A DNA stretch of 32,000 bases from a cyanobacterium endosymbiont of Epithemia turgida isolate EtSB Lake Yunoko (lineage in GTDB: Bacteria > Cyanobacteriota > Cyanobacteriia > Cyanobacteriales > Microcystaceae). A program made the translations under genes and the position numbers. Location: positions 690,001-722,000 of the forward strand of contig NZ_AP012549.1 in the NCBI RefSeq assembly GCF_000829235.1. Reading direction: 5' to 3'. This document shows positions 1,347-26,432 of this stretch, piece by piece; position 1 is the stretch's first letter, and each line of letters starts with the position of its first letter. Below the pieces are notes generated by a model. The model did no database searches. It saw nothing but the letters and a program-made list of their open reading frames with translations, and was not told the DNA's origin.

Positions 1347-3317
1347 ATGAAATTGCCCGATCAACGATGGCAAGTTGCTGTTCCTAATCCCAAACAAGTC
1401 GAGCAACTGATCAAAACAACAAAACTACCACCTTTAATTGCCCAAGTTATTATTAATCGGGGTATTGAGAGTTCCAATGCTATTGAAATCTACCTCAGTC
1501 CTGAAACTCAAACTCTTCCTTCACCTTTAGAGGAATTCCCTGATTTAGAGATCAGTGTAAAATTATTAAAAGATGCGATTACCACAGAGAAAAAAATCGT
1601 TATTTGTGGGGACTATGATGCTGATGGTATGACTAGTACTGCCTTATTATTGCGTGCTCTCACCCACTTGGGGGCTGATGTTCACTATAAAATTCCCAAT
1701 CGGATAAAAGATGGTTATGGCATTAATGAACATATTGTAGAAGCCTGTGCTAATGAAGGAGTAGGGTTGATTTTAACAGTTGACAATGGCATTACAGCTT
1801 GTAAACCGATTCAACGAGCTATAGAATTGGGGTTAAGTGTTATTATCACTGATCATCATAATCTCCCTAAAAAATTACCTCCAGCCGATGCGATTCTTAA
1901 TCCAAAATTACTTCGAGAAACTTCTCCTTATTGTGGATTAGCAGGAGTCGGAGTAGCATATATTTTGGCAGTAACAATAGCTCAAAGTTTTGGGTTACTC
2001 AAGGGTTTAGTAAATCCATTATTAGAATTATTCACATTAGGAACTATAGCAGATCTAGTCCCCCTTGTTGGTGTAAACCGACGTTGGTTAAAACGGGGTT
2101 TAAGGAAGCTTCCCCACTCAAAATTAGCAGGAGTTCAAGCGCTCATGCAGGTTACCGGAATCAGTGAAGAACAAAAACAACTTAAACCCGATGATATTGG
2201 CTTTCGATTAGGACCAAGAATTAACGCAGTAGGACGTATTGGCGAGCCTCAAATAGCGATTGAATTATTGACTACTGATGATCCTAAAATCGCATTAGAA
2301 AGAGCGATGCAATGTGAGCAAATTAACAACAAACGTAAGTCCATATGTGAAAAAATTGAATTAGAAGCTATTCATTTAATAGAAAATACTCCAATCCTTT
2401 GGAAACGTGACCGAGTTTTAGTGGTGATCAAATCTCAATGGCATCATGGGGTTATTGGCATTGTAGCTTCCCGTTTAGTAGAACGTTACGGAGTTCCTGT
2501 TTTTATCGGAACCTATGAAGAAAACTCTAGTAAAATTAGAGGGTCTGCACGAGGAATTAAAGAGTTTAATATAGTTGAAGGATTGGATTTTTGTCAAGAT
2601 ATTTTAGAAAAATATGGAGGACATAAAGCAGCAGGTGGCTTCAGTTTATCAGCTAGCAAATTAGAGGCTTTCAAACAAAGATTAAGCACCTTCGCCCATC
2701 AATGCTTAAAAACTCAACATCTCAAACCTTTAGTAATAATTGATGCTCAGGCTAATTTTAAAGAATTAACTACTAATTTATATCAGTCCATTGATCAACT
2801 TCAACCTTTGGGAATTGGCAATCCTTTCCCTGTTTTTTGGACTCCTAATATTTATATTGTTAAGCAAAGAATAGTAGGTAAAAATCATATTAAGTTAGAA
2901 ATTTCTCAAAATGATTATAATCAAACAGAGATATATGCAATTGCTTGGCGTTGGGGCGAGTATTTTCCCTTACCTAAACGAGTTGATATTGCTTATAAAC
3001 TAACAGAAAATGACTGGAATGGTAATTCAAAAATTGAGTTAGACATTGTAGGAATACGATTACCATCATATCCTTTGTCTGCTTCTGATCAGAAATCAGA
3101 AATCTTTCAATATCAAGGGCGAAACTATCGATGTAGTTTTTCTGCCACGGAGAAGAAATTAAAAATTAGAAATGATCAAGGAAAGGTGTTAGCCGTTAAA
3201 AGAGGAGAAAGACAAGGGTTTTTAGGAACAACGCGGGAAAATTTGCAGAACGTCGATATTACTCAGCAACGTTACTTTGATTTAATTAAAATAGCCATGG
3301 AGGTTTTAGGTTTATGA
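1347..3317 (+). CDS. recJ: Single-stranded-DNA-specific exonuclease RecJ
   Basis: 656-aa ORF carrying DHH-family motifs (VICGDYDADGMTSTA, LILTVDNGI, IITDHHNLP) and the DHHA1-type GGHKAAGG motif, followed by a C-terminal OB-like extension. Confidence 0.9.
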   Translation: MKLPDQRWQVAVPNPKQVEQLIKTTKLPPLIAQVIINRGIESSNAIEIYLSPETQTLPSPLEEFPDLEISVKLLKDAITTEKKIVICGDYDADGMTSTALLLRALTHLGADVHYKIPNRIKDGYGINEHIVEACANEGVGLILTVDNGITACKPIQRAIELGLSVIITDHHNLPKKLPPADAILNPKLLRETSPYCGLAGVGVAYILAVTIAQSFGLLKGLVNPLLELFTLGTIADLVPLVGVNRRWLKRGLRKLPHSKLAGVQALMQVTGISEEQKQLKPDDIGFRLGPRINAVGRIGEPQIAIELLTTDDPKIALERAMQCEQINNKRKSICEKIELEAIHLIENTPILWKRDRVLVVIKSQWHHGVIGIVASRLVERYGVPVFIGTYEENSSKIRGSARGIKEFNIVEGLDFCQDILEKYGGHKAAGGFSLSASKLEAFKQRLSTFAHQCLKTQHLKPLVIIDAQANFKELTTNLYQSIDQLQPLGIGNPFPVFWTPNIYIVKQRIVGKNHIKLEISQNDYNQTEIYAIAWRWGEYFPLPKRVDIAYKLTENDWNGNSKIELDIVGIRLPSYPLSASDQKSEIFQYQGRNYRCSFSATEKKLKIRNDQGKVLAVKRGERQGFLGTTRENLQNVDITQQRYFDLIKIAMEVLGL

Positions 3318-3790
3318 ACCTCAAATTTACCCTAATTTTTTGAGTGAGATAGCTTAATTATCATTTTTTATCATTCAAATTGTAGAAAAAATACACAGAT
3401 AACAAATTATTAATCAATAAAGTATATTTTAAAATTAGAATTTAGGTTTTGTATGAAAAAATAGTAAATAAATTTTAAAATATCAACTTACCGAATACTT
3501 ATAGATGATAGTAGGTTGTGTTTAAATCTACGTATAAGTCAATTTATTTAAAAATAAAAACATAAAGAAGTTTACTTTTGAGTGTAAGTCAAACCATCTG
3601 AATTAGAATTACTAATTAACTACTCTGATCAGTTGTTTTCTTAAGAATATTGCGACCCATTGAACTAGATAAAAAAGGTTGACAAACCCTATGACCATAT
3701 GGGTAAAAAATACGTAAAGCTATTGCGGTTCAGTCTTTTAAATCGGCTTTTAAATGGGTAAAGCTAACCGATTATCCTAGTGAATATACT

Positions 3791-4083
3791 ATGCTCAATA
3801 ATAATCTCACTGACGCTCTACAATCTCTTCCAAGTGTCATCCGGTATAAAATAATTTGAAAGCTCTAGCTGCATACAATAAGGCGTTAAAGGTTTGTACT
3901 CCTCAAAATACTCCTGTTGAATAGGCTCACACTATTTCAAATAAGGCAAACGTTTTATTGAATTTAGCTGATGATGTTGAGCATCCTGAGAAGGGCAATC
4001 AAAATAATATGATGGAAGCTAAAACTTACTATTTAAAAGCCCAAGGAGCATTTAGTCAATACGGACAATGGGAACGAGTATAA
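3791..4083 (+). pseudogene. TPR-repeat protein remnant
   Basis: Translation gives ALAAYNKALKVCTPQNTPVE*AHTISNKANVLLNLADDVEHPEKGNQNNMMEAKTYYLKAQGAFSQYGQWERV*. This is a TPR-like A-x-x-Y-x-x-A-L helix pattern with an in-frame TAG. The upstream ATG segment (3791-3858) sits in a different frame. Confidence 0.45.
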
Positions 4084-4162
4084 ATCATGAAAAACGCTTT
4101 ACAAAATATAGAGGTATAATTAGAAAGTTGGTAATTTAATTTCTCTAAGGAACGTAATTAAA

Positions 4163-4432
4163 ATGACTGAAATTTTAGGTGACTTAGGAACAGATACAAG
4201 CCTTCATAGTTTTTTTGTAAACCTAATGATGGGAGAGATAACCCTAGTAACAGGCTTACTCTGGTTAGTAGTAGCTGCTATCATTTCTGTTGTTGGTGGA
4301 GCTATGGGTGGAGTGTTATTGGCGGGGAAGGATATTGGCTATCAATTGTCTGCCATGTTGGGTAGTTTATTTGGTCCTGCTGGAGTTATTCCAGCTGTTG
4401 CCGTTGGACTTATTTTGTTGAGATTAATGTAG
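4163..4432 (+). CDS. Hypothetical glycine-rich small membrane protein (89 aa)
   Basis: Intact ATG ORF with an AAGGA upstream. It has two Gly/Ala-rich hydrophobic helices (LLWLVVAAIISVVGGAMGGVLLAG and LFGPAGVIPAVAVGLILL). The next ORF starts 12 nt downstream. Confidence 0.55.
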   Translation: MTEILGDLGTDTSLHSFFVNLMMGEITLVTGLLWLVVAAIISVVGGAMGGVLLAGKDIGYQLSAMLGSLFGPAGVIPAVAVGLILLRLM

Positions 4433-4444
4433 GAGTTACAGATA

Positions 4445-4666
4445 ATGTTAAAACTTACCTGGTATAGTGCGAAATTGTTTTTTAAAGGAAAATTAATTCG
4501 TGACACTGGATATTTTTACAAACAATACGCTTTAGGGTTTTTTATCGGACTATTGTTATTAGTCGGATTGTCTAAAATGGAGGTTAATTTAGCTTTGGCT
4601 ATTACAGTGTCTAGTCTAGTGACAGGGATGCTTATGCCTTTTTTGTTTAAAGATATAAAAATGTAA
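4445..4666 (+). CDS. Hypothetical small membrane protein (73 aa)
   Basis: Intact ATG ORF preceded by AGGAG about 10 nt upstream. It has two hydrophobic helices and appears to be co-transcribed with 4163-4432. Confidence 0.5.
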   Translation: MLKLTWYSAKLFFKGKLIRDTGYFYKQYALGFFIGLLLLVGLSKMEVNLALAITVSSLVTGMLMPFLFKDIKM

Positions 4667-4689
4667 TGATTTTCCACATTGAGTTATTC

Positions 4690-4733
4690 AGATTCTATAG
4701 TGGCTAGCTATTAACTATTCACTATAGAATTTT
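4690..4733 (+). terminator. Possible intrinsic terminator after the two-gene membrane cassette
   Basis: An 11-bp perfect stem, attctatagtg (4692-4702) with cactatagaat (4720-4730), plus possible flanking G-U and A-T pairs, followed by TTT. The 17-nt loop is large and the T-run is short, so this is a weak call. Confidence 0.3.
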
Positions 4734-4933
4734 AACTGTTGATATATAAATAAATCTATCTCCACATCAGGACAAGTGAAGATATTAAAAAGCCTAGCAA
4801 AAGAAATTAGTCCCTGTGAGCAAATAACATCTTAATGGGATAAAAATCAGAAGGTGATTGTTAAAAGGTACAGTAAAAGAATCACATCAAGAAAAGGTTA
4901 ACTCGTATAGTTCCTAGAATTAAACAAAAATCA

Positions 4934-5239
4934 ATGGATATATTGCGCCATGCAGTTGAGGGTAAAATTGTTTATAGATTATTACGTTATAATCAATTAA
5001 TTAAACCTCTAACTCCGCTCTTAGAAGAACGTATTCGAAAAACATTATAAGCTGTTCAATTAAGAGCAAAAAGTCATAATGAAAATATAGAATTGGTGGC
5101 GATTGAACTACCTAATAGTGTCAAAGTTCAATTGATTCGGACTTGTAAGAATTGTGCAACTTCTAGCCTAACCCCAAAACAGGAGTTAAACAGGTGATAA
5201 AAACTTATTGTCGTAAAATCACGTCCTATCAGTGAATAA
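4934..5239 (+). pseudogene. nfu: NifU C-terminal-domain (Nfu-type Fe-S scaffold) pseudogene
   Basis: A single frame reads ...LTPLLEERIRKTL*AVQLRAKSHNENIELVAIELPNSVKVQLIRTCKNCATSSLTPKQELNR**KLIVVKSRPISE*. This aligns with the Nfu pattern (GGNVELVEI.G..VKLRLQGACGSCPSSTMTLK.GIERKL) and the CxxC motif is retained as CKNC. The in-frame stops are at 5048-5050 (TAA), 5195-5197 (TGA) and 5198-5200 (TAA). Confidence 0.65.
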
Positions 5240-5316
5240 CTCTACAATAGTTAATTGTTAAGAATAACAGCTGTTTAAGTGGTTCATTTTCTTCATTCTA
5301 AGATAGAGGTTAGACA

Positions 5317-5619
5317 TTTTGAACAACTATTGACGAGATATTCAATCGAAGAATTTCACCGCTGTAAATTTAAGGATTAACGTTGATTTGAACCAGACAA
5401 CATGAGCAAGTAATTGTGCATAGTAATAGTTGTAATCATGTAACGATGCCCTTAGAAATTAAAAAAGTTGAAAATGGTATTTTAACCTGCTTATATCATG
5501 AATTTAAATATCGCTTAGCTAAAGAACAATGTTTAACGGCACTAGAAATATCTCTGGAAGCTTATTCCGTTAAACAATATGGATATCGCGTGTTAGTTCA
5601 AGTTTCTTCGGAGAAATGA
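5317..5619 (+). pseudogene. Small Rieske [2Fe-2S]-domain protein, N-terminally disrupted
   Basis: ORF 5416-5619 carries an exact Rieske motif, C-N-H-x16-C-L-Y-H (SCNHVTMPLEIKKVENGILTCLYH), but only about 10 residues precede it before a TGA at 5389-5391. Remnants of the N-terminal strand (FTAVNLRINVDLNQTT*ASNCA) lie upstream in another frame. A local near-duplication, agtaattgtgcat / agtaatagttgtaatcat, sits at the junction. Confidence 0.5.
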
Positions 5620-5634
5620 CATAAGCTGTTCAGA

Positions 5635-6085
5635 TTAAACTTTCTTGTGTTTGCTGACAAATTTTTCTTTAACAAATATATTCTTGGGGTCATAAATAAT
5701 AATATACTACCAAATAAGTTCCCCCTACTGCGACAAGAATTTATCTCCGAGTAAATTTAAAATATGAGGGTATTTGTTGGCTAATTCCGTATTTAAAATT
5801 TCATCATGGGTCAGATTCTAAGGATTAACCAAATTTCCCTGTCCATCGATACAAACCATTAATATCTACAAACAGAGTATCAGAAAGATAATAATTTAAG
5901 ACATAAAGCCTTTCGTCCTACTTCGTTTTATTCATCTCAAATTAAAAATCTCTTATACCTATAAGTATTTTAAGTGAAAAATATAATGTATGAAGTTTTA
6001 GATAAGTTACGTTAACGACATCGTGGTCTACTCTACCGAAAATTCGTAACTATTCCGATCCCCTTCTCTTTATCATAAAGATGAT
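5635..6085 (-). pseudogene. Amidohydrolase (dihydroorotase-like) C-terminal remnant
   Basis: The reverse strand reads in one frame MVCIDGQGNLVNP*NLTHDEILNTELANKYPHILNLLGDKFLSQ*GELIW*YIIIYDPKNIFVKEKFVSKHKKV*. This resembles the dihydroorotase C-terminus (..NPA.ilgl..G.L..G..ADi.i.D......v....f.SK.KN). A further upstream piece, KGIGIVTNF, may correspond to the I..I.TDH motif. There are three in-frame stops and the N-terminal two-thirds of the gene is absent. The assignment is weak. Confidence 0.3.
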
Positions 6086-6110
6086 TGGAAAAAAGATTTA
6101 AGGAGCAACG

Positions 6111-6377
6111 ATGACGCAACCACCAAAACTACATACAGTAAACTATTCGTATAATTAGCAAAACAGTTCACTGTTCCAACGTCTTTAAGAAATAGTGGCT
6201 ATTGTCGAAACCCTAGGTTTTGATTGTAAAGACAATACTTATGACTTGCTGTCTTTATTATGCATTTTAGAAACTTTACACCGAAAAATCCGATCTAACC
6301 TTTTCGAACCTTCTTTGCCCAATACTCGTAATAAATTATATGAAGTTTTAAAAACCATTAAAGAAAAGGGAGGTTAG
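6111..6377 (+). pseudogene. Unidentified small gene interrupted by two in-frame stop codons
   Basis: A strong AAGGAG lies 5 nt upstream of the ATG at 6111. The frame reads MTQPPKLHTVNYSYN*(TAG 6156-6158)QNSSLFQRL*(TAA 6186-6188)EIVAIVETLGFDCKDNTYDLLSLLCILETLHRKIRSNLFEPSLPNTRNKLYEVLKTIKEKGG*. The ORF-track entry 6195-6377 is the tail of this frame. Confidence 0.5.
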
Positions 6378-6586
6378 CCTTATATTTAACGAATAAAACT
6401 GCAAAAATTCCCTAATTATTGTCCCAATTCGACCTCTTCCTAAATTTTGAAAATGGCGAGAGAAAGACTCTAAAATTAGATATTTGACTTCCACTGAGTG
6501 ACTTATTTTTCCTTGTCTTGGCAAAGAAGTCTTTACAAGGGACAATAGATTGCAGTTACTATATCAATTAAATTTAAGTCTCTTTT

Positions 6587-7324
6587 GTGGATAAAATTCG
6601 TACTGTTTCGGATACTAAACGGGATTTCTACACCCATCACGCCCGACCCATAAACTCTGTTTACCGCCGTTTTATTGAAGAGTTGTTGGTAGAGATACAC
6701 CTGCTCTCAGTTAATGTAGATTTTCGTTACGATCCTATTTATGCTCTAGGGGTTGTCACTTCTTTTGAGCGTTTTGTTCAAGGATATCAACCCCAAAAAG
6801 ACAAAGACTCTATTTTTTCAGCGTTGTGTTATTCAGTTGGAGGCAATGCTGAACAATATCTACAAGAAGCTCAAACTCTTTTAGCTCAGGTTAAAGGAAT
6901 GTCAGTGTCAGATTTCAGGGAAATTCTTAAAGCTGCTAGTTCACAAGTTCCTGACAATAGAACATTGTGTGAAATTTTTCAAGCAATTGCTCAAAATTCT
7001 CGGTTTAAATATAGTCGTCTGTTTACGGTAGGTTTATATACTCTAATAATGGAACTTGCTCCTGATTTAGTCACAAATCAGGAGCAAAGCAACCTAATTT
7101 TTAGTCAAATAGCTGAAGTGCTTCATTTATCTCCAGAAAAACTCCAAAAAGACTTAGATCTCTATCGTAGTAATCTCGATAAAATAGAACAGTTACTTGC
7201 TGTTGTTGAAGATGCCCTCAAAGCAGAACAAAAAAAACAAAAAAAAGTAACACAACAAACACAGACAACTAATTTTTCCGTTAATTCAGACAATGATTCT
7301 AAGGATGATTTGAATAACTCATAA
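6587..7324 (+). CDS. thf1: Thylakoid formation protein Thf1 (Psb29)
   Basis: 245-aa ORF with a GTG start. The N-terminus, RTVSDTKRDFYTHHARPINSVYRRFIEELLVEIHLLSVNVDFRYDPIYALGVVTSFERFVQGYQP, and the DLDLYRSNLDKIEQ motif match the cyanobacterial Thf1 I remember almost residue for residue. Confidence 0.88.
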   Translation: MDKIRTVSDTKRDFYTHHARPINSVYRRFIEELLVEIHLLSVNVDFRYDPIYALGVVTSFERFVQGYQPQKDKDSIFSALCYSVGGNAEQYLQEAQTLLAQVKGMSVSDFREILKAASSQVPDNRTLCEIFQAIAQNSRFKYSRLFTVGLYTLIMELAPDLVTNQEQSNLIFSQIAEVLHLSPEKLQKDLDLYRSNLDKIEQLLAVVEDALKAEQKKQKKVTQQTQTTNFSVNSDNDSKDDLNNS

Positions 7325-10175: not shown

Positions 10176-10256
10176 TTGTAAGATGATACCCTACCTGTCC
10201 TAAAAGTTTTTGAGTTTCTTAATAAAAAAAAATTTATCTTTTTTTTGAATAATTTT

Positions 10257-10678
10257 GCCCCCGTTTGCAGATCCCTAATAGCTTCAGGTTGGTTATTTAA
10301 GACTAGACAAACTTTAGCCCGTTAGAGGTAGACTTCAGCAAATTCATTATCTAGATATAAGGCATAGTTAAAATCAGCGATTGCTTGGGAATAGTTGTTT
10401 ATTTTAGTATAGGCAATGTCTCGATTGTAGTAGGATTCTGCATCGTAAATATTAAAGCGAATCACTTGAGTAAAATCTGCAATTGCCCCTTAATAATCTC
10501 CTTTAATTCCTTTTTCCATACCTTCAATCAAGATTTCTTCAAGGTTATGAACGTCATTGGACTGTCGACTCAAAAAAATAACTTCCTGGAAAGGACTATA
10601 GAGAAGACTATGTCCTTGCGTGAAGGATAAAACAATCAATATCTCAAGATAGTTAAAATAACATAAACTCATTATCAT
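10257..10678 (-). pseudogene. TPR-repeat protein remnant
   Basis: The reverse strand reads ...GIKGDY*GAIADFTQVIRFNIYDAESYYNRDIAYTKINNYSQAIADFNYALYLDNEFAEVYL*RAKVCLVLNNQPEAIRDLQTG. These are tandem TPR motifs (AIADF..AL.l.p..aeay.nRg) with at least two in-frame stops. ORF 10490-10678 is its 5' piece. Confidence 0.6.
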
Positions 10679-11214
10679 CAGGGTATGAAAGAAAGATAGT
10701 TTTTATATTATGATGTTGAATGCTTATAATTTTTAACAGATCTGGGAATTATTAGAGAAAATAGATTGTTCAATCAAAATAAATTTTCTCTATGCTCCTC
10801 TTCAGAGATATTGAGAGATTTACCTAATCTCTTTTTAGTAGCTAACTGATAGAGTCAGACTACATTAATTTAACTCAGATACAACAAGGATTGATCGAAC
10901 TCGAAATCTAGATTATCTGCTTATAATAGTTATTGAATAAATTACCAGTCAATCTATTCCACCTGAGTTAATGTGACAAAATTGAAACTTCATCAGAGGT
11001 GGGGATTTCCTTGGTAGTGACCATGGTAAATTTTTGTGATATCAATACAAACAATTTAGTAAGCGTGTCAAAAAACAATGTTCCTTGGTAACAGATGAGC
11101 ATTATTTAAGAGAATTACAATAAATTATCTGGTGAGGTCATGAACCTATATAAATAACAATACAATAATAAAAAGTAGTTTAACATTTATTGAGAATATA
11201 AATAATCTAGTTAA

Positions 11215-11263
11215 TTATTATTAGACTTTGTATTTATTGCAAAAATACAAAGTCTAATAATAA
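11215..11263. repeat. Perfect 21-bp stem hairpin
   Basis: ttattattagactttgtattt (11215-11235) is the exact reverse complement of aaatacaaagtctaataataa (11243-11263). The loop is the 7 nt attgcaa. Confidence 0.85.
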
Positions 11264-11291
11264 CTTTTTATATTTCAGATAAATTCTATCG

Positions 11292-11333
11292 TTTTACTAA
11301 TAATTTTATTAGCTAATAAAATTATTAGTAAAA
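11292..11333. repeat. Perfect 42-bp palindrome
   Basis: ttttactaataattttattag|ctaataaaattattagtaaaa consists of two exact 21-nt arms with no loop. It lies 28 nt downstream of the previous hairpin. Confidence 0.85.
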
Positions 11334-11851
11334 TCATTATAAACTAATTAATTTCACGAAATATTGAACATAAAAAAGATTTATTATCAATTACTATAAA
11401 AAGCTAGAAGAGAGCTATAAGTAGCTATAGTATAATGCAAAAATAGTTAAATGTCTTTCAAAGACAACATCTATACATTTTCTAATTATTTAAAATTTCA
11501 ATAAACTATTTCTTATATTCATAGAAGTCAATAAATAATTAGAAATTTAATCATTTTTAGATAAGATATTTACTTATTGTAAAGTATATCTTTAAGAAAT
11601 TGTAAGGCTATCAATATAGCATAAAAGATTAAATAAATTACTGTAGACTACAACAATAAACAAGATAAATCACTGAAAAACTGCAGTTTACCCAAACTAT
11701 CCTAGTAAATGGTTTTATGCAGATATTTTTAAAAAATCTTGTATTTTCTTCTCAAGAAAGCCTATTTATTAGTCTTTCTCGTGAAAAGGGTATGATCTTC
11801 TTCCATTTAGAAAATAAGAAAGTGTTGACCAAAGTATATCCATAAGAAACT

Positions 11852-11894
11852 GCAGATGATTACAGGTTTCTAAGAGAAGCTTGTAATCATCTGC
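11852..11894 (+). promoter_or_regulatory. 15-bp stem hairpin in the gcvH leader region
   Basis: gcagatgattacagg (11852-11866) pairs with cttgtaatcatctgc (11880-11894), giving 14 Watson-Crick pairs plus one G-U. It sits 100 nt upstream of the gcvH ATG. Its function is unknown. Confidence 0.35.
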
Positions 11895-11994
11895 TACAGA
11901 TTACAAGATTTATCTTGAAATTTGTAACAAAATTCTATCTCCTTCAGCATTAGCGGTGTTAAACTTACGTTTGCTGTGAATTTGAGAATAAAAA

Positions 11995-12464: not shown

Positions 12465-13530
12465 ACTAGAGTTAAAATGTTGGCTATAAATAATAGGGGC
12501 TGTTCACCATTAGCTAAATCAAAGGGTAGTTGTGAGCGTTTCGTTCGTACATTATTTTCATTATTCCAATTCCCACATAGTTTAAGACATCAGTCTAGGT
12601 ACTAATCGTACGATCTTAAGAAGATGATATTAATTGGTCGAAATTAAATTCACTTAAGGTTAAAGTCCATTAAGTTGATTTCCATTGTTGTTAACCAGAT
12701 ACTAATAACAGGCTAGTCCTCTAAAAAAAGAAGTGTAAAGCACAGCTATCATTAAAAGATACATATTGAAAGATTAAGTGGACCAAATAACCGTTAACAG
12801 CCATAATATTATAGTTTTTCTCTTCTTATTCCAAGTCAGAATTATAGTTCTGAGACTCTATATGGCAGAAAATAGTGCCCCACTAAATACACCGACAACC
12901 CCCAACATGTAAAATTGGTGTATCAATATATTGTATTCTGTTTGAAATACAACCACAAAATTAAAAGTTCCATTGATTCCTACGAGCATTTTATCAGAGA
13001 GGTATCCTTGACTAATTAGGATAGACGAGGAAAACAGTGGTTGTCGTAGAAATACACATACTATAAGTAATAAAAATTCAAGGAGCTATTCCTAAACGGT
13101 TAATAGAGTTCTTATTGTTTTCCCATTTAACAGAAAATACCAATCAGAAAATAAAAAATTCCTAACTGACAAGGATTTTCATTGTATAGCGACTCATCTA
13201 GGGAGGTTGTTCACCACAAAATAGGGTAAAAGTGCAATTTCATGGTGTTAGACGAAGAGATAACCGCTCCAAAAGTAATATGATTTCTATCAAGGAGAAA
13301 ACCGCTACAGTTTCGCTGATATGATAAATATCTACAGTAAGAGGGAGAGTATTTTAGCTGGGTAGAGTCGCAATGAAAGCAATAATAAAACAAATAGTTA
13401 AAGTAGGAATAGTGAGAATAAGAACAACACCAAACCAACCGACATATAGACGGTTATTAATGCCAGGCAACCACTGACAAAACCGTTCCCATAGAAAAAT
13501 ATCTTATCTAGTGTGTAAAGTTACTTTTAT
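12465..13530 (-). pseudogene. psbA: Photosystem II D1 protein pseudogene
   Basis: Reverse-strand translation recovers D1 from end to end, but across several frames. The N-terminus reads [43 protein letters not shown]. Another frame gives ..HITFGAVISSSNTMKLHFYPILW. A further stretch reads [50 protein letters not shown], and the C-terminal end reads MYERNAHNYPL / DLANGEQ. The start-codon position reads ATA (13528-13530), codon 9 is TAA (13504-13506), and a TAG (12858-12860) aligns with His215. Confidence 0.93.
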
Positions 13531-15007: not shown

Positions 15008-17197
15008 TACCTAAAGAATTAAGAGTTCGTTTATCTAGACTAACGCATTACAGCAAAAGTAGAGTAAGCAGATATTATGTCTCTTCTAAATATAGAGAAT
15101 ATAATTATTCTTTTTTATCTCAAATATTACTGTTCTTACAAAGCAAGCGACATAATAAGTATACAGCTTTAAATAAAATTTTAAAAATATAAATTATTTT
15201 ATATCTCTATATCTACTAAAGTAGAGCTATTTTTCTATTGTTTTATTTTTTTAAAAAAATAATAAAAATTTTTATTCAGTCAATAATAATGTAGCTATTT
15301 ACTTTATTTTATAATGTTTATTTTTACAATATTGTACTAATAATTTTTACTGTATTTTATATAAAATAACGTATTTTATATAAGTGAATAAATATTGCCA
15401 TGTTTTTATTTTTTTATCTTTTTTCTTGAAAAATATTTATCTTAAATACTTTAAAATAAATATTTTTTTCTTTTTTTGTATATTTATAATTTCAACTACA
15501 AAGTACTTTTTTTAGATTGAAAATTATCAATTTTTAGCTATCTATTTTATTAAACCTAATATCTCAGATGAACGATTACAGCCTAAAAATCTAGATTGAA
15601 CTATCGAAAATTCTATTTTGATATTTTTTTTATTTGCTTTCTACTTTTTTTTCAACGTTAAAGCGATTACTTTATGTTCTCATACATCTCATATTTAAGT
15701 TCATCTCTTAAGATGTTACTTTTGCATTTGCAATTATATTGTTTAAAAAACTTCGACATGAAAGTCTTATTTGGACAAATAGGAAAAAATTGGAGATCTA
15801 AAACTATAATTTTATCGTTAAATCTATAATAGAAAAAAATATAACTATGACCTTTTAACTTTATATAAATCTCTTTATCATCATGAAGATGTACTCAAAT
15901 ATAATTACTGAATCTATTAGTATAATACTAATTTTTTTTAAATATTTAAGATAAATTTAAGACAATAACCTTATCCCAACCCCGACTATAAATATATTTT
16001 TTGACTGTGGCAGTATACTACTCTCCTCTATTTTTAGAATAAACTTTATACCATACAATAGTAAGTTTTTTATGTGGTTATTTACATTCAAAGATTTTAG
16101 GAACTAACTTCTACCATAAATAGGGAATAACATTGCTGCACCCTTTATCTGTTTTCTACCTAAAATTAGAATGACTTTAAATAAATTTAACCTGAAATTT
16201 AATTTTTTAGACTCCGACTTCTCATATTAGTTAGCTAGGATCCGATCTCAAATAATATTGTTTCGCATAATTAACTTTTACATGATATATAACAAATAGT
16301 TAACAACTCATCCTCATCCTAAACTTCAAAATTTATTCTGTAAACATTGAAGCTACACTTTTTGTTCTAATCACAACTAAAAAACATTTGCATTCATAGT
16401 GAATTTCTTTGCTTAAAGCCTATATTGCTAATTAACTACTAAGTTAATTAGCAATATTACGGATAATATTTATCTTGATCATTAGTAGCTATGATACCTA
16501 CATCAAAAATTCCAAAGCTTGTTTTTGGTTTATTTGAAACGCTGCATTTTACATCCACTTCATCTCAAATTGTTGCGTTAAGCTGAGATTGGAAAATTTT
16601 GACTTTATACAGACCTCTTGAAAAAATAAAAACCTCATTTGTACTACCCCAACAAAGTTAATCCCACAAAGGTACTTTTTTTAGAAAATCTAACAAAAAC
16701 TTAACAAAATGTCTAGTTTAAAACCTATAAACTAGGCATTTTTAGCTTGGACAGCATTTGGAGACCCAATTAATAAGCTCTATGAGTCGACAGAATATGC
16801 ACATAACATTATTCTTGGCAAGATATTTGTCAACAATTTACTCAGCATGAACAAAATATTAAGTATATCTACTCACAAAAACAGAAAATTCGAATAACTT
16901 TCTTTCAAATCATTTGACGAATACTGTAAAGAATCTGTAATAATCTAAAAGGGCAGTATATTTTGCAGTCCTTATTCATTGCCAGAACTGTTAAAGATTA
17001 AAACAAAATCGTGAGTGATCACCCTATCAGCACAGCTAGAGGTAAGATAATTTCGACGGCACAAGCCAATATTACTAACAATAATCTGGGTTTTATAGAA
17101 ATACGTCTCCGAAAAATTTCTGGACAAGTCTCTATATAAATCATATTTCGATATGGCTGATCATTGCTAAACTAATGAGTTTTTTTTAAACCAATCA
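15008..17197. other. 2.2-kb extremely AT-rich gene desert
   Basis: No ORF of 60 codons or more occurs on either strand apart from the edge artefact 17167-17373. The region has long A/T homopolymer runs and low-complexity strings, and I found no recognisable protein remnant in any frame. Confidence 0.75.
16422..16457. repeat. Perfect 16-bp stem hairpin inside the desert
   Basis: atattgctaattaact (16422-16437) is the exact reverse complement of agttaattagcaatat (16442-16457). The loop is the 4 nt acta. Confidence 0.8.
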
Positions 17198-18510: not shown

Positions 18511-18839
18511 ACTATAGCTGCTTTTGCCTAATGAACATCGATCTCCCCGTTGTCACAAACAAAGGGAGCTGTACCACTGAATTATTCTTTAGTTTATGTC
18601 AAGATAATTACATTTAATAGAATTTGTGTGTCATGGAGGATAAACATTAAAAATAAAAATTGTGACAAAAACTATTTATACCTGATTTGAGGAGATCAGG
18701 AATTCAAAGACTTTTAAGTTTAGATAATAACTCTGTTATGCTGTTTATAGCTAACTAAATTCAGCAACTCCAGAAATTATGACTAACAGCTAACAGTTAT
18801 GATAATTTTTATTCTAAAAATAACAGAGGAACCGTGAAG

Positions 18840-19700
18840 CTCAATAAGACGGTTAATAAAAGTGAACGAAATAAGTTAGATAGAATGGTCATCTCCGGAT
18901 AAATAAGACGTGCTTCAGTTCAACTAAACAAATTCTATTTGTTTAGAACATAATTCCGAAATATTTCAAATATTAAATAAAAATTTGGGCGGATATCTAT
19001 CCAGTAATAGGCTCAAACTCGGTCCATGGTATGTCCGATGACATTTATATAATCCAAAATAAAATTTATAGATGATCATGCTATAAAAGCGATTTTATCT
19101 GAGTTATTTTAACTTTATTGGAGATAGGGTGACTTTTTCATCGGACATACACCTTCCCTGTTCTCTGTTCTTTATTGCTTTAAACCACTTTCTGTGCTCA
19201 CGGTCAACACTTGAGGAGGAGTAGCATCAGGGGAATAGAAAAAATTTATTCTGACTAGCTTCCATACTTTGGGAAAAATCGTTTGTTTGACAAGAAGTTT
19301 GCCAATTCTCCCCTATGTTGAACAATATGAAAATAATAGGTTTACTAAGTATGCATCTGATCAAAATAACAGATGCTAATTCCTCCTAAAAAAAGACTTA
19401 TGAAGTAGGGAAATGAAGGAAACTTAACCCTCCAATTGATTTATCTCGTTTAACGGGAGTTTGTGGTGTACTCGTACACAACTTTAAGAAATGGTTAATA
19501 ATTTGTTAGTAACTATTGTTTCTTAACACTATCAGTCATTCACCGTATTTAAGGAAGTTGTTAGATAGTCAACTTTTTAAAAAATATTAAGTAAGAGTTA
19601 TAAATTCCTATCTGTTATTTTACCTATCCTAAAAAAATAGCAGAAGTTCCGTTAGTTTTAATTAAAAATTACTTGGTTAAATTTATTGCTTTTCTTAATT
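18840..19700 (-). pseudogene. D-isomer-specific 2-hydroxyacid dehydrogenase family pseudogene (glycerate/hydroxypyruvate reductase- or SerA-like, about 320-aa class)
   Basis: Reverse-strand fragments in shifting frames follow the family order. VVYEYTTNSR* corresponds to the ..V.NTPG.N motif. SKPIIFILFNIG is followed, after an apparent G-run frameshift, by GRIGKLLVKQTIFPKVWKLVRINFFYSPDATPPQV, which covers the NAD-binding GxGxIG region and F-G-M-x-V-x-x-Y-D-P. The remaining pieces are VCPMKKSPYLQ* (H.P.T..T..li), DIPWTEFEP (LDV...EP) and SLLLDRYPPKFLFNI. The borders are approximate. Confidence 0.5.
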
Positions 19701-19722
19701 TGAATAAATTTTAAATAGATGA

Positions 19723-24104: not shown

Positions 24105-24953
24105 TTACCTTTGACATTGCGGGCAAAAGTGTGCAGAACGTCCGCCTAATTTTAAGCGCTCAATGGCTGTTCCACAAACTCGACAGGATTCCCCTGTGCG
24201 ACCATAGACCCAGGCAATCTTTCCATAATTACCATTGATTCCCGTCACTCCTCGAAAATCACTAAAGGTTGTTCCTCCTTTATCGATAGCCTCTTTCAAT
24301 ACTTCAATAATTGATATTCTTAGCCTTTGAAGTTGTTTGCAATTTAAATTTTTAGCCATTACAGTCGGTCGAATACCGCTCTTGAATAAGGCCTCATCTG
24401 TATAAATATTTCCTAATCCTGCTACGATACCTTGATCCAATAACAGGCTTTTAATATTGCGTTGACTAGTTCTTAATCTTTCGGTTAAATAACCTAAAGA
24501 AAATTCTTCAGAAAAAGGTTCAGGACCCAATTTTTTTAACCCCGTAATAATTATTTCTGGATTTTGGTTTTGGGGAACCCACCATAGTCTACCAAAAGTG
24601 CGAACATCAACAAAACGTAGCTCTTGAGCTTTATCACAAAACAAACGTAAACGCGTATGTGTTTGTAGGGGTTCAAGTCGATTCAACCATAATAACTGAC
24701 CGGTCATTCGTAAATGAACGCCTAAAAAACCCCCATTTTTGCCGGATTTTTTTCTCAATCTTCCTAATAAATATTTCCCTCGTCGCTCCCACCCACTAAC
24801 GGTGACATTGGTAATTTGGGTTAAAAATTCCGTAACTGATAAAGGATAAGCGAGAGTACGATTCAGTAATACTTCGCCACCTTGTATTGTTGTTCCTAAA
24901 GTTAGCCGATTAAGACCTTGACGAACAGTTTCTACTTCAGGAAGTTCTGGCAC
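24105..24953 (-). CDS. mutM: Formamidopyrimidine-DNA glycosylase (Fpg/MutM)
   Basis: GTG start with an AGGA 7 nt upstream. The N-terminus is (M)PELPEVETV with the catalytic Pro2/Glu3, the H2TH region is present, and the C-terminal zinc finger is CRVCGTAIERLKLGGRSAHFCPQCQ. Confidence 0.92.
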   Translation of the reverse strand: MPELPEVETVRQGLNRLTLGTTIQGGEVLLNRTLAYPLSVTEFLTQITNVTVSGWERRGKYLLGRLRKKSGKNGGFLGVHLRMTGQLLWLNRLEPLQTHTRLRLFCDKAQELRFVDVRTFGRLWWVPQNQNPEIIITGLKKLGPEPFSEEFSLGYLTERLRTSQRNIKSLLLDQGIVAGLGNIYTDEALFKSGIRPTVMAKNLNCKQLQRLRISIIEVLKEAIDKGGTTFSDFRGVTGINGNYGKIAWVYGRTGESCRVCGTAIERLKLGGRSAHFCPQCQR

Positions 24954-25129
24954 AGTTTTATCCTAAAAATCATTATTAACAATAATAGTCCAGTCCGAGT
25001 ACTCTTATTTTAAGAGTGGTTCCTTCGTGTTTTCTTCTCTCCTTAGGTTAGAGTTAGATTATAGTCAAAGTTGATATCAGTTTGGCATCAACTTTGTATA
25101 AAAGTACTCTTTATTGGCGTATACTAAAA

Positions 25130-25311
25130 AATATGACATTATTTGATTAATTTTCGGTAAAACAAAGCTGTTGGTATCAACGCCACCAAGACTGCTGTTA
25201 AAGCTGACGATGATAGGATAGATAATTTTCTATTTGTCAACACTAGCAACAGTTCCTACATCTTTCGGGATTGCCTAGCTCTCCTAAACCTAAATACTAT
25301 TGGATAGCAAG
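25130..25311 (-). pseudogene. psaE: Photosystem I subunit IV (PsaE) pseudogene
   Basis: The reverse strand reads ..[40 protein letters not shown]... against PsaE ..YWF.[35 protein letters not shown].DEL. There is an in-frame TAG at 25230-25232. The N-terminal part (AIQ*YLG.. / VFRFRRA..) is frameshifted with further stops, and no ATG remains at the expected start near 25311. Confidence 0.8.
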
Positions 25312-26009
25312 ATCTTGATGGTCAAAATTTTAAATTGTATTGCAAATATGACCATGTTACCTCGACAAAATAAGTGAAATGTCACAAAACCCTTCAGACA
25401 GGAGAGTTTTCTCTAGCTATAAACTAGGTTTTTGGCTGATCTTTATAAGTTAGAGGATAATGTGGTAGCCAATACTAACCCAATAAATTGTTCAAGTTGT
25501 AAGTTCAGTAAACTTTGGATTCTCAAATAGTTTTAAGTAAGTTACTATGTCCTATGTTAGTTAGAATGGATAGGATTTTAAATCCCAAAAACCATAAACA
25601 CTAGAGTTAGCAGGAGTGCTCATAAGGCATGAATAGATTCGGCCCAAAATAATTAACATTAGACTGAATTCGGACTATAGGTGAGGAGGGAGTGTACGGT
25701 TAATTTTTTACTATCATAAATATTTTTTATTTATCAAAATTTTTCTATCTCCTTACCTCCAAAAGTTTTTCCTCAAAAATATTTATCAAGAAAAAAACAG
25801 TTTTATACTTAATAAAGTTAATTGGAAGACTCGGCAATCCTAGCATAATATCAGCAGTTAAGAATAATTTAAAAGAGTTATGCTGCTCCTAAGAATCTCT
25901 CATCTCTAGTGAAGGGAGTGTCAAAGCGGGTACCTTTTTATGATATCATTGCTGACGGTTCGCTATTGGCTTTATGGATTAATTCTAATAGCTTCACTTG
26001 TCTAACACT

Positions 26010-26432
26010 ATGCCCGTGATTGATCATCAGACCCCGACGGCTAAAACCGTTTCCCTCTCAGTTGATCCCATGAGAGATTACTATCAATTGCAACGCACTT
26101 TGTTGTTGTTGAGTTTATCTCTAACGGTGATTATTTTTATCTGTGTCTGGACTGTATATTCCCTAAATACTGCTCTTAACTACCTAGTAGGAGCTTTTGT
26201 CGGCATTGTTTATTTAAAACTATTAGCCGGGGACGTAGCACAAGTTGGTTTAGTCAAAAAACGGATAGGAACTAGAGGGATGGGATTATTTGTGACTTTA
26301 ATCGTTGTGGCTAGTCAATGGCAGAAAATGCATATTCTCCCAGTTTTTCTGGGATTTTTGACTTATAAAGCCGCCATAATTGCCTATATGCTCACAAGTA
26401 TTCTAATACCAGAATCTGAGCCAAGGCATTAG
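26010..26432 (+). CDS. atp1: ATP synthase protein I (atp1, operon leader gene)
   Basis: A small four-helix hydrophobic protein located directly upstream of the a subunit, as in cyanobacterial atp operons. I prefer the ATG at 26010 to the TTG at 25998 used by the track. Confidence 0.7.
   Translation: MPVIDHQTPTAKTVSLSVDPMRDYYQLQRTLLLLSLSLTVIIFICVWTVYSLNTALNYLVGAFVGIVYLKLLAGDVAQVGLVKKRIGTRGMGLFVTLIVVASQWQKMHILPVFLGFLTYKAAIIAYMLTSILIPESEPRH

Follow-up and report, generated by a model that had tools for sequence, protein, structure and literature searches.

Background

The closest described counterparts of the sequence considered here are the psaE genes of Rippkaea orientalis PCC 8801/8802 (Cyan8802_0128) and of the free-living relative L089 (NEED01000069, GCA_002110465.1, 1-3849). 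They are intact open reading frames (ORFs) of 69 and 75 codons, respectively, in photosynthetic organisms, and both lie directly upstream of mutM (also named fpg). In Rippkaea orientalis PCC 8801, 274 bp separate the 69-codon psaE from mutM downstream of it, and a DUF6391 gene precedes psaE. An intact 69-codon psaE is also found in Spirulina sp. CS-785/01, where it ends 26 bp ahead of mutM. In L089, atpE, atpB, and atpI lie on one strand, and the DUF6391 gene, psaE, and mutM lie on the other.

Among the endosymbionts, UCYN-A (the Braarudosphaera bigelowii nitroplast) is a relative that likewise fixes nitrogen and belongs to the Crocosphaera/Rippkaea group, as does EtSB, the spheroid body (diazoplast) or cyanobacterium endosymbiont of Epithemia turgida. 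The psaE gene of UCYN-A (ucynA-02950) is numbered beside fpg (ucynA-02960) (PMC12903740, Table S2), which is the arrangement at the EtSB locus. UCYN-A dispensed with photosystem II alone and retains a 72-residue psaE together with the rest of photosystem I (PSI), whereas EtSB has lost both photosystems.

Loss of photosynthesis was reportedly the headline of the 2014 description of the EtSB genome. According to PMC5638926, photosynthesis has been lost entirely in EtSB, most PSI and PSII genes are missing, and 225 pseudogenes are present; the loss has also been published in PMC12377750. For individual genes, Table S2 of PMC12903740 (2026) gives psaA, psaB, psaD, and psaM of EtSB as absent, psaC as a pseudogene, psaF, psaI, psaJ, psaK, and psaL as 'broken', and psaE as '(broken)'. 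In the same table, psaE is '(broken)' in EaSB, an annotated pseudogene (P3F56-02160) in EcSB, and '--' in EpSB, RgSB, and RaSB, so that the endosymbionts of E. clementina (P3F56-02160) and E. adnata have the same gene at the same locus with the same fate as EtSB. The psaE relic of EtSB is therefore already known and constitutes expected genomic debris. The additions made here are small, namely the exact anatomy of the lesions, the nested pattern in which they are shared, and a relic in RgSB, where the table has none.

Identification of the psaE relic

The window analysed, i.e., the whole stretch of 32,000 nucleotides of the EtSB chromosome, has a GC content of about 34%, which fits the published value of 33.4% for EtSB (PMC5638926). 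Translation of its minus strand from about 25311 to 25130 yields a PsaE-like peptide that is interrupted by a TAG at 25232..25230. With the stops replaced by X, the relic peptide matches the Pfam family PF02427 (PSI_PsaE) with 36.5 bits (E 3.9e-9) over profile positions 18-58 of 60, which exceeds the gathering cut-off of 27 bits. Among the solved structures in the PDB, about 75 PsaE chains are matched as well, the best with an E value of about 1e-6. When the PsaE of Rippkaea PCC 8801 was searched against the whole window with tblastn, a match of 43.9 bits was found at 25262..25140. The chance level, derived from 60 shuffled windows, has a maximum of 21.2 bits (mean 17.9, S. D. 1.7). The amino-acid identity is 49%, in agreement with the initial annotation, in which a PsaE core with about half of its residues identical to PsaE was placed on the minus strand upstream of mutM. 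At the nucleotide level, the relic is about 77% identical over its surviving part to the orthologous genes of Rippkaea and L089. Its position directly upstream of mutM is that of psaE in this cyanobacterial group, and L089 shares in addition the places of the DUF6391 gene and of the divergent atp operon. The sequence at 25262..25107 (-) is thus a genuine psaE pseudogene, with homology far above chance.

The relic does not, however, encode a complete PsaE domain (PF02427 positions 1-60, comprising all beta-strands of the SH3-like barrel), nor does it form an intact ORF with a start codon, a ribosome-binding site, and no stops. Compared with the intact orthologues in Rippkaea and L089, it is devoid of the start codon and of codons 1-19 and 41-48, and only the relic has a nonsense codon and a broken 3' end. 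With its lost start, its nonsense codon, its deletions, and the frameshifts at its 3' end, the relic has the disabling lesions of a unitary bacterial pseudogene.

Table S2 of PMC12903740 records no intact psaE and no complete PSI gene set elsewhere in EtSB. The more general proposal in the initial annotation, that maintenance of the photosystem genes as a class has ceased, is borne out by the statuses of the PSI genes in that table and by the published loss of photosynthesis. In the window itself, a second PsaE match of 28.9 bits (34% identity) is located at 2409-2579 (+), inside the intact recJ gene, where it corresponds to RecJ residues 355-411. It was rejected as a second psaE, because it represents the DHHA1 motif of RecJ in the reading frame of recJ itself and was judged to be a chance resemblance.

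Anatomy of the lesions

The lesions were mapped with MAFFT and by aligning the relic pairwise, with affine gaps, against intact psaE from L089 and L081. The relic extends from codon 20 to the former stop position, i.e., over the rear two thirds of psaE, and occupies 25107..25262 (-), as delimited by Pfam, tblastn, and base-by-base alignment to L089 and L081. Upstream of it, the segment 25263..25324 (-) aligns to a non-coding stretch of L089 and L081 and represents the old spacer, with the 5' leader, that once separated the DUF6391 gene from psaE. The extent of 25130-25311 given in the initial annotation therefore holds for the core only: 25263-25311 (-) is leader, and the relic reaches further in the 3' direction, to about 25109..25107 (-).

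The leader and the relic meet at the junction of a 97-bp deletion at 25262..25263 (-), where, in the pairwise alignment to L089, CAATCCCGAAA is followed by GATGTAGGAAC. The deletion took away 40 nt of the leader (with the ribosome-binding region in them) as well as the ATG and codons 1-19, and it fused the leader ending in GGCAATCCCGAAA straight to GATGTAGGAAC, which begins with Asp20. What had been read as a scrambled and frameshifted N-terminus is accordingly former non-coding leader joined to codon 20 by a single clean deletion. MAFFT paired the 5' end of the relic with psaE codons 10-19 across a 7-bp gap; this pairing was wrong according to the affine-gap alignment, in which the stretch is the old leader and there is one 97-bp deletion. 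Upstream of the PsaE match, no in-frame ATG, GTG, or TTG was found, so that the start codon is indeed missing as had been proposed, the ATG having been lost in the 97-bp deletion.

The in-frame TAG is located at 25230..25232 (-), at the exact position given earlier, and translation and the alignment column assign it to the codon of Ser30. In this column the free-living relatives and most spheroid bodies have TCY and the metagenome lineage JGI96 has TAT, while TAG is found in EtSB only. The adjacent Gly31 has been replaced by Lys in the relic. Further downstream, the alignments place the junction of a 24-bp in-frame deletion at 25199..25206 (-), a placement that is ambiguous by a few bases; the deletion comprises codons 41-48 (DKVNYNGF). 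It had been described as a deletion of one codon, because a PsaE of the short-loop Nostoc type served for comparison; the true relatives possess the long-loop PsaE, and relative to them eight codons are missing. After codon 60, the 3' end of the relic (25107..25165, -) has several small frame-breaking indels relative to L089, and the position of the former psaE stop codon, at about 25109..25107, is now GAG.

A 36-codon ORF overlaps the relic in another frame (25139..25249, -). It was rejected as a new gene, because it is broken in JGI96, which is 96% identical to EtSB.

Neighbourhood and synteny

The downstream neighbour, mutM, is intact at 24105..24953 (-), with the Pfam domains Fapy_DNA_glyco, H2TH, and zf-FPG, and it anchors the synteny. 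The protein that it encodes and the NCBI protein of the cyanobacterium endosymbiont of Epithemia turgida are 100% identical, and fpg of EtSB (ETSB-0452) is listed beside psaE in Table S2 of PMC12903740. The upstream neighbour is a divergent atpI-like gene at 25998..26432 (+), with matches to Pfam CGL160_C and ATP-synt_I, at the start of the atp operon. Between it (25998) and mutM, 1044 bp are without any ORF. A faint relic of the DUF6391 gene is present in this spacer at 25325..25496 (-). Its tblastn match in EtSB has an E value of only 0.09; at the corresponding site, ENA_SB, the R. musculus spheroid body, and RgSB give clearer matches (E 1e-8 to 3e-4). The stop region of the DUF6391 gene, ATTTGCAATAA, aligns at 25335..25325. 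The 1044-bp spacer is what remains of two wrecked genes, DUF6391 and psaE, and apart from this ORF-free spacer the gene order of the window is that of L089.

The order with atpI on one side and DUF6391, psaE, and mutM on the other is common to L089 and the spheroid bodies and is not found in Rippkaea PCC 8801. At mutM, L089 is also nearer to the spheroid bodies than Rippkaea is (nucleotide distance 0.214 vs 0.252). An inverted repeat, ACTCTTA-AAA-TAAGAGT, is located at 25001-25017 (-), some 50 nt ahead of the start of mutM. The stretch around it is well conserved among the spheroid bodies and is not alignable to the free-living relatives.

Distribution of the lesions among spheroid bodies

The locus was compared in EtSB and six other endosymbiont genomes or contigs, i.e., in seven lineages. 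Six of them have a psaE relic at this site. The exception is the R. inflata endosymbiont (L085 2589-3000, CP191494.1), in which the relic and most of the spacer have been deleted and mutM is intact. In the L085 sequence, 64 consecutive N moreover separate the 3' end of atpF from the spacer, and the sequence is without atpG(b'), atpE, atpB, and atpI, probably owing to an assembly gap.

The lesions form a nested pattern. The 97-bp deletion is found with an identical junction in five lineages, namely EtSB, JGI96 (L083), RgSB (the spheroid body of Rhopalodia gibberula, L082), and the spheroid bodies of R. musculus (L086) and R. sterrenbergii (L088). In contrast, the later lesions of the other rhopalodiacean spheroid bodies are lineage-specific. 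The 24-bp deletion is common only to EtSB and JGI96. JGI96 has no stop in the stretch from codon 20 to about codon 60. In RgSB (L082 2735-2859), the relic was found as two tblastn pieces with frameshifts (E about 4e-6), in contrast to the '--' of the published table (PMC12903740, Table S2).

The 97-bp deletion is absent from ENA_SB (L087 2652-2863; ENA assembly ERZ25042306, 3.1 Mb). Its relic is nearly full-length and in one frame, with a single TAG of its own, an N-terminal deletion of 27 bp (nine codons), and a change of the ATG to ATA. In the neighbour-joining tree of mutM, ENA_SB is the sister of the remaining lineages, which include the five that share the 97-bp deletion, and this position fits the deletion as a derived character of the other clade. 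No disabling lesion in psaE is common to ENA_SB and the clade that contains EtSB.

Substitution rate of the relic

The identities between the relic of EtSB and those of JGI96, RgSB, the R. musculus spheroid body, and ENA_SB are 0.90, 0.81, 0.78, and 0.73, respectively. The corresponding identities at the third positions of mutM are 0.93, 0.80, 0.79, and 0.70. The first and second positions of mutM are 0.90-0.99 identical in the same four lineages and 0.80-0.99 identical across all seven comparisons. Since the identity of the relic is approximately that of the third positions of mutM, the relic evolves at an approximately synonymous, near-neutral rate, which, together with its lineage-specific decay, is the behaviour of a unitary pseudogene. 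Over its first 30 nt, the relic is 97% identical to the free-living gene, which resembles conservation, but the identity of the relic as a whole is at the level of synonymous sites.

This rate also bears on the possibility that the relic DNA or its RNA has been co-opted, e.g., to serve mutM as promoter, 5' UTR, or small RNA. Co-option would agree with the retention of a recognisable relic at one site in most of the lineages, and with the good conservation among spheroid bodies of the last ~100 nt ahead of mutM, including the inverted repeat at 25017..25001. The conserved stretch next to mutM, however, is downstream of the relic and outside it, while the relic itself diverges as fast as the third positions of mutM and has its own indels in each lineage. 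Moreover, the mutM ORF of the R. inflata endosymbiont is intact without any relic upstream of it. Considering these facts together, a regulatory role of the relic is very improbable.

It is still less probable, to the point of being hardly credible, that a shortened PsaE-like protein is produced through an internal start or through readthrough of the stop codon. Such a product would have to come from the stretch between codon 20 and about codon 60, in which the TAG is the sole interruption of the frame and which is stop-free in JGI96; the same stretch, however, contains frameshifts in other lineages. In EtSB it is preceded by neither an in-frame ATG, GTG, or TTG nor a ribosome-binding region, and a protein made from it would lack eight loop residues and the initial beta-strands of the SH3-like fold. 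The core genes of PSI are also absent, and there would be no complex for the protein to bind.

Finally, the match is short (about 50 codons) in an AT-rich genome and recJ in the same window gives a chance match of 28.9 bits, but a chance similarity, or lesions created by assembly errors, may be practically dismissed in view of a score of 43.9 bits against at most 21.2 in shuffled windows and above the gathering score in Pfam, an exactly syntenic position, and the recurrence of the two deletions (97 bp and 24 bp) in metagenome contigs that were assembled independently (L083) and in other genomes.

Other genes and gene remnants in the window

The coding density of the window is low, as is typical of the EtSB genome, and ORF-free stretches of 1-3 kb contain further gene wrecks. 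A heavily degraded relic of psbA (D1) at 12496-13518 (-) was detected as three tblastn pieces in different frames, with 32-49% identity to a plant D1 query; it is probably the pseudogene ETSB-0445 of PMC12903740, Table S2. A relic of a Rieske [2Fe-2S] domain is located at about 5380-5533 (+) (Pfam PF00355, 23.2 bits vs a gathering score of 20.3), and a weaker NifU-like trace is seen near 5036-5185. In the 3.3-kb gap at 3318-6586, which holds the Rieske relic, there is no ORF of at least 90 codons. The ORF-free stretches at 10176-11994, 15008-17197, and 18511-19722 are 1.2-2.2 kb in length with a GC content down to 27-28%, and they are probably further pseudogene debris.

An intact ORF of 245 codons at 6587-7324 (+) is the gene psb29/thf1, annotated as 'photosystem II biogenesis protein Psp29'; it scores 261 bits, where the NCBIfam cut-off is 139. 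Because the organism has no photosystem II, this gene presumably has another role in EtSB.

Discussion

From the above results, the feature upstream of mutM in EtSB is almost certainly a non-functional and neutrally decaying relic of psaE at its ancestral site. Its decay may be explained by the way of life of the organism. As a nitrogen-fixing endosymbiont, EtSB lives on carbon from its host diatom, and because the host supplies fixed carbon, PSI would have become useless. Once photosynthesis was dispensable, selection on psaE would have lapsed and mutations would have piled up.

The order of these mutations may be derived from the lineages that share each lesion. The first would be the 97-bp deletion, in the ancestor from which EtSB, JGI96, RgSB, and the endosymbionts of R. 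musculus and R. sterrenbergii all descend. The 24-bp deletion would have followed in the ancestor of EtSB and JGI96, together with the changes of Ser30 to Tyr and of Gly31 to Lys. Lastly, TAT would have mutated to TAG in EtSB alone, with small indels gathering at the 3' end. Since JGI96 has TAT at codon 30 where EtSB has TAG, the stop codon appears to be the youngest lesion. To judge from its sequence, the relic is presumably not expressed; it would encode nothing and would persist only through the slow pace of deletion in these genomes.

The earliest part of this history may be interpreted in two ways. When the sampled spheroid bodies last shared an ancestor, the psaE gene, and perhaps PSI, may still have been intact, to be disabled independently at least two times thereafter; we regard this as a tentative and rather unlikely reading. 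At least as likely is the alternative that selection had already lapsed in the common ancestor, and that the gene, being only 210 bp in length, was not hit before the lineages split. If psaE was disabled independently, photosynthesis would have been lost after the endosymbiont lineages split, and the finding would bear on the question of single versus multiple acquisition raised in PMC12903740.

On its own, the psaE relic matters little, since EtSB has more than 200 pseudogenes, of which this is one. Its modest value is that of a clean and datable marker, and the nested lesions across the spheroid bodies provide a small set of characters for ordering the decay of PSI in the evolution of a nitrogen-fixing proto-organelle.
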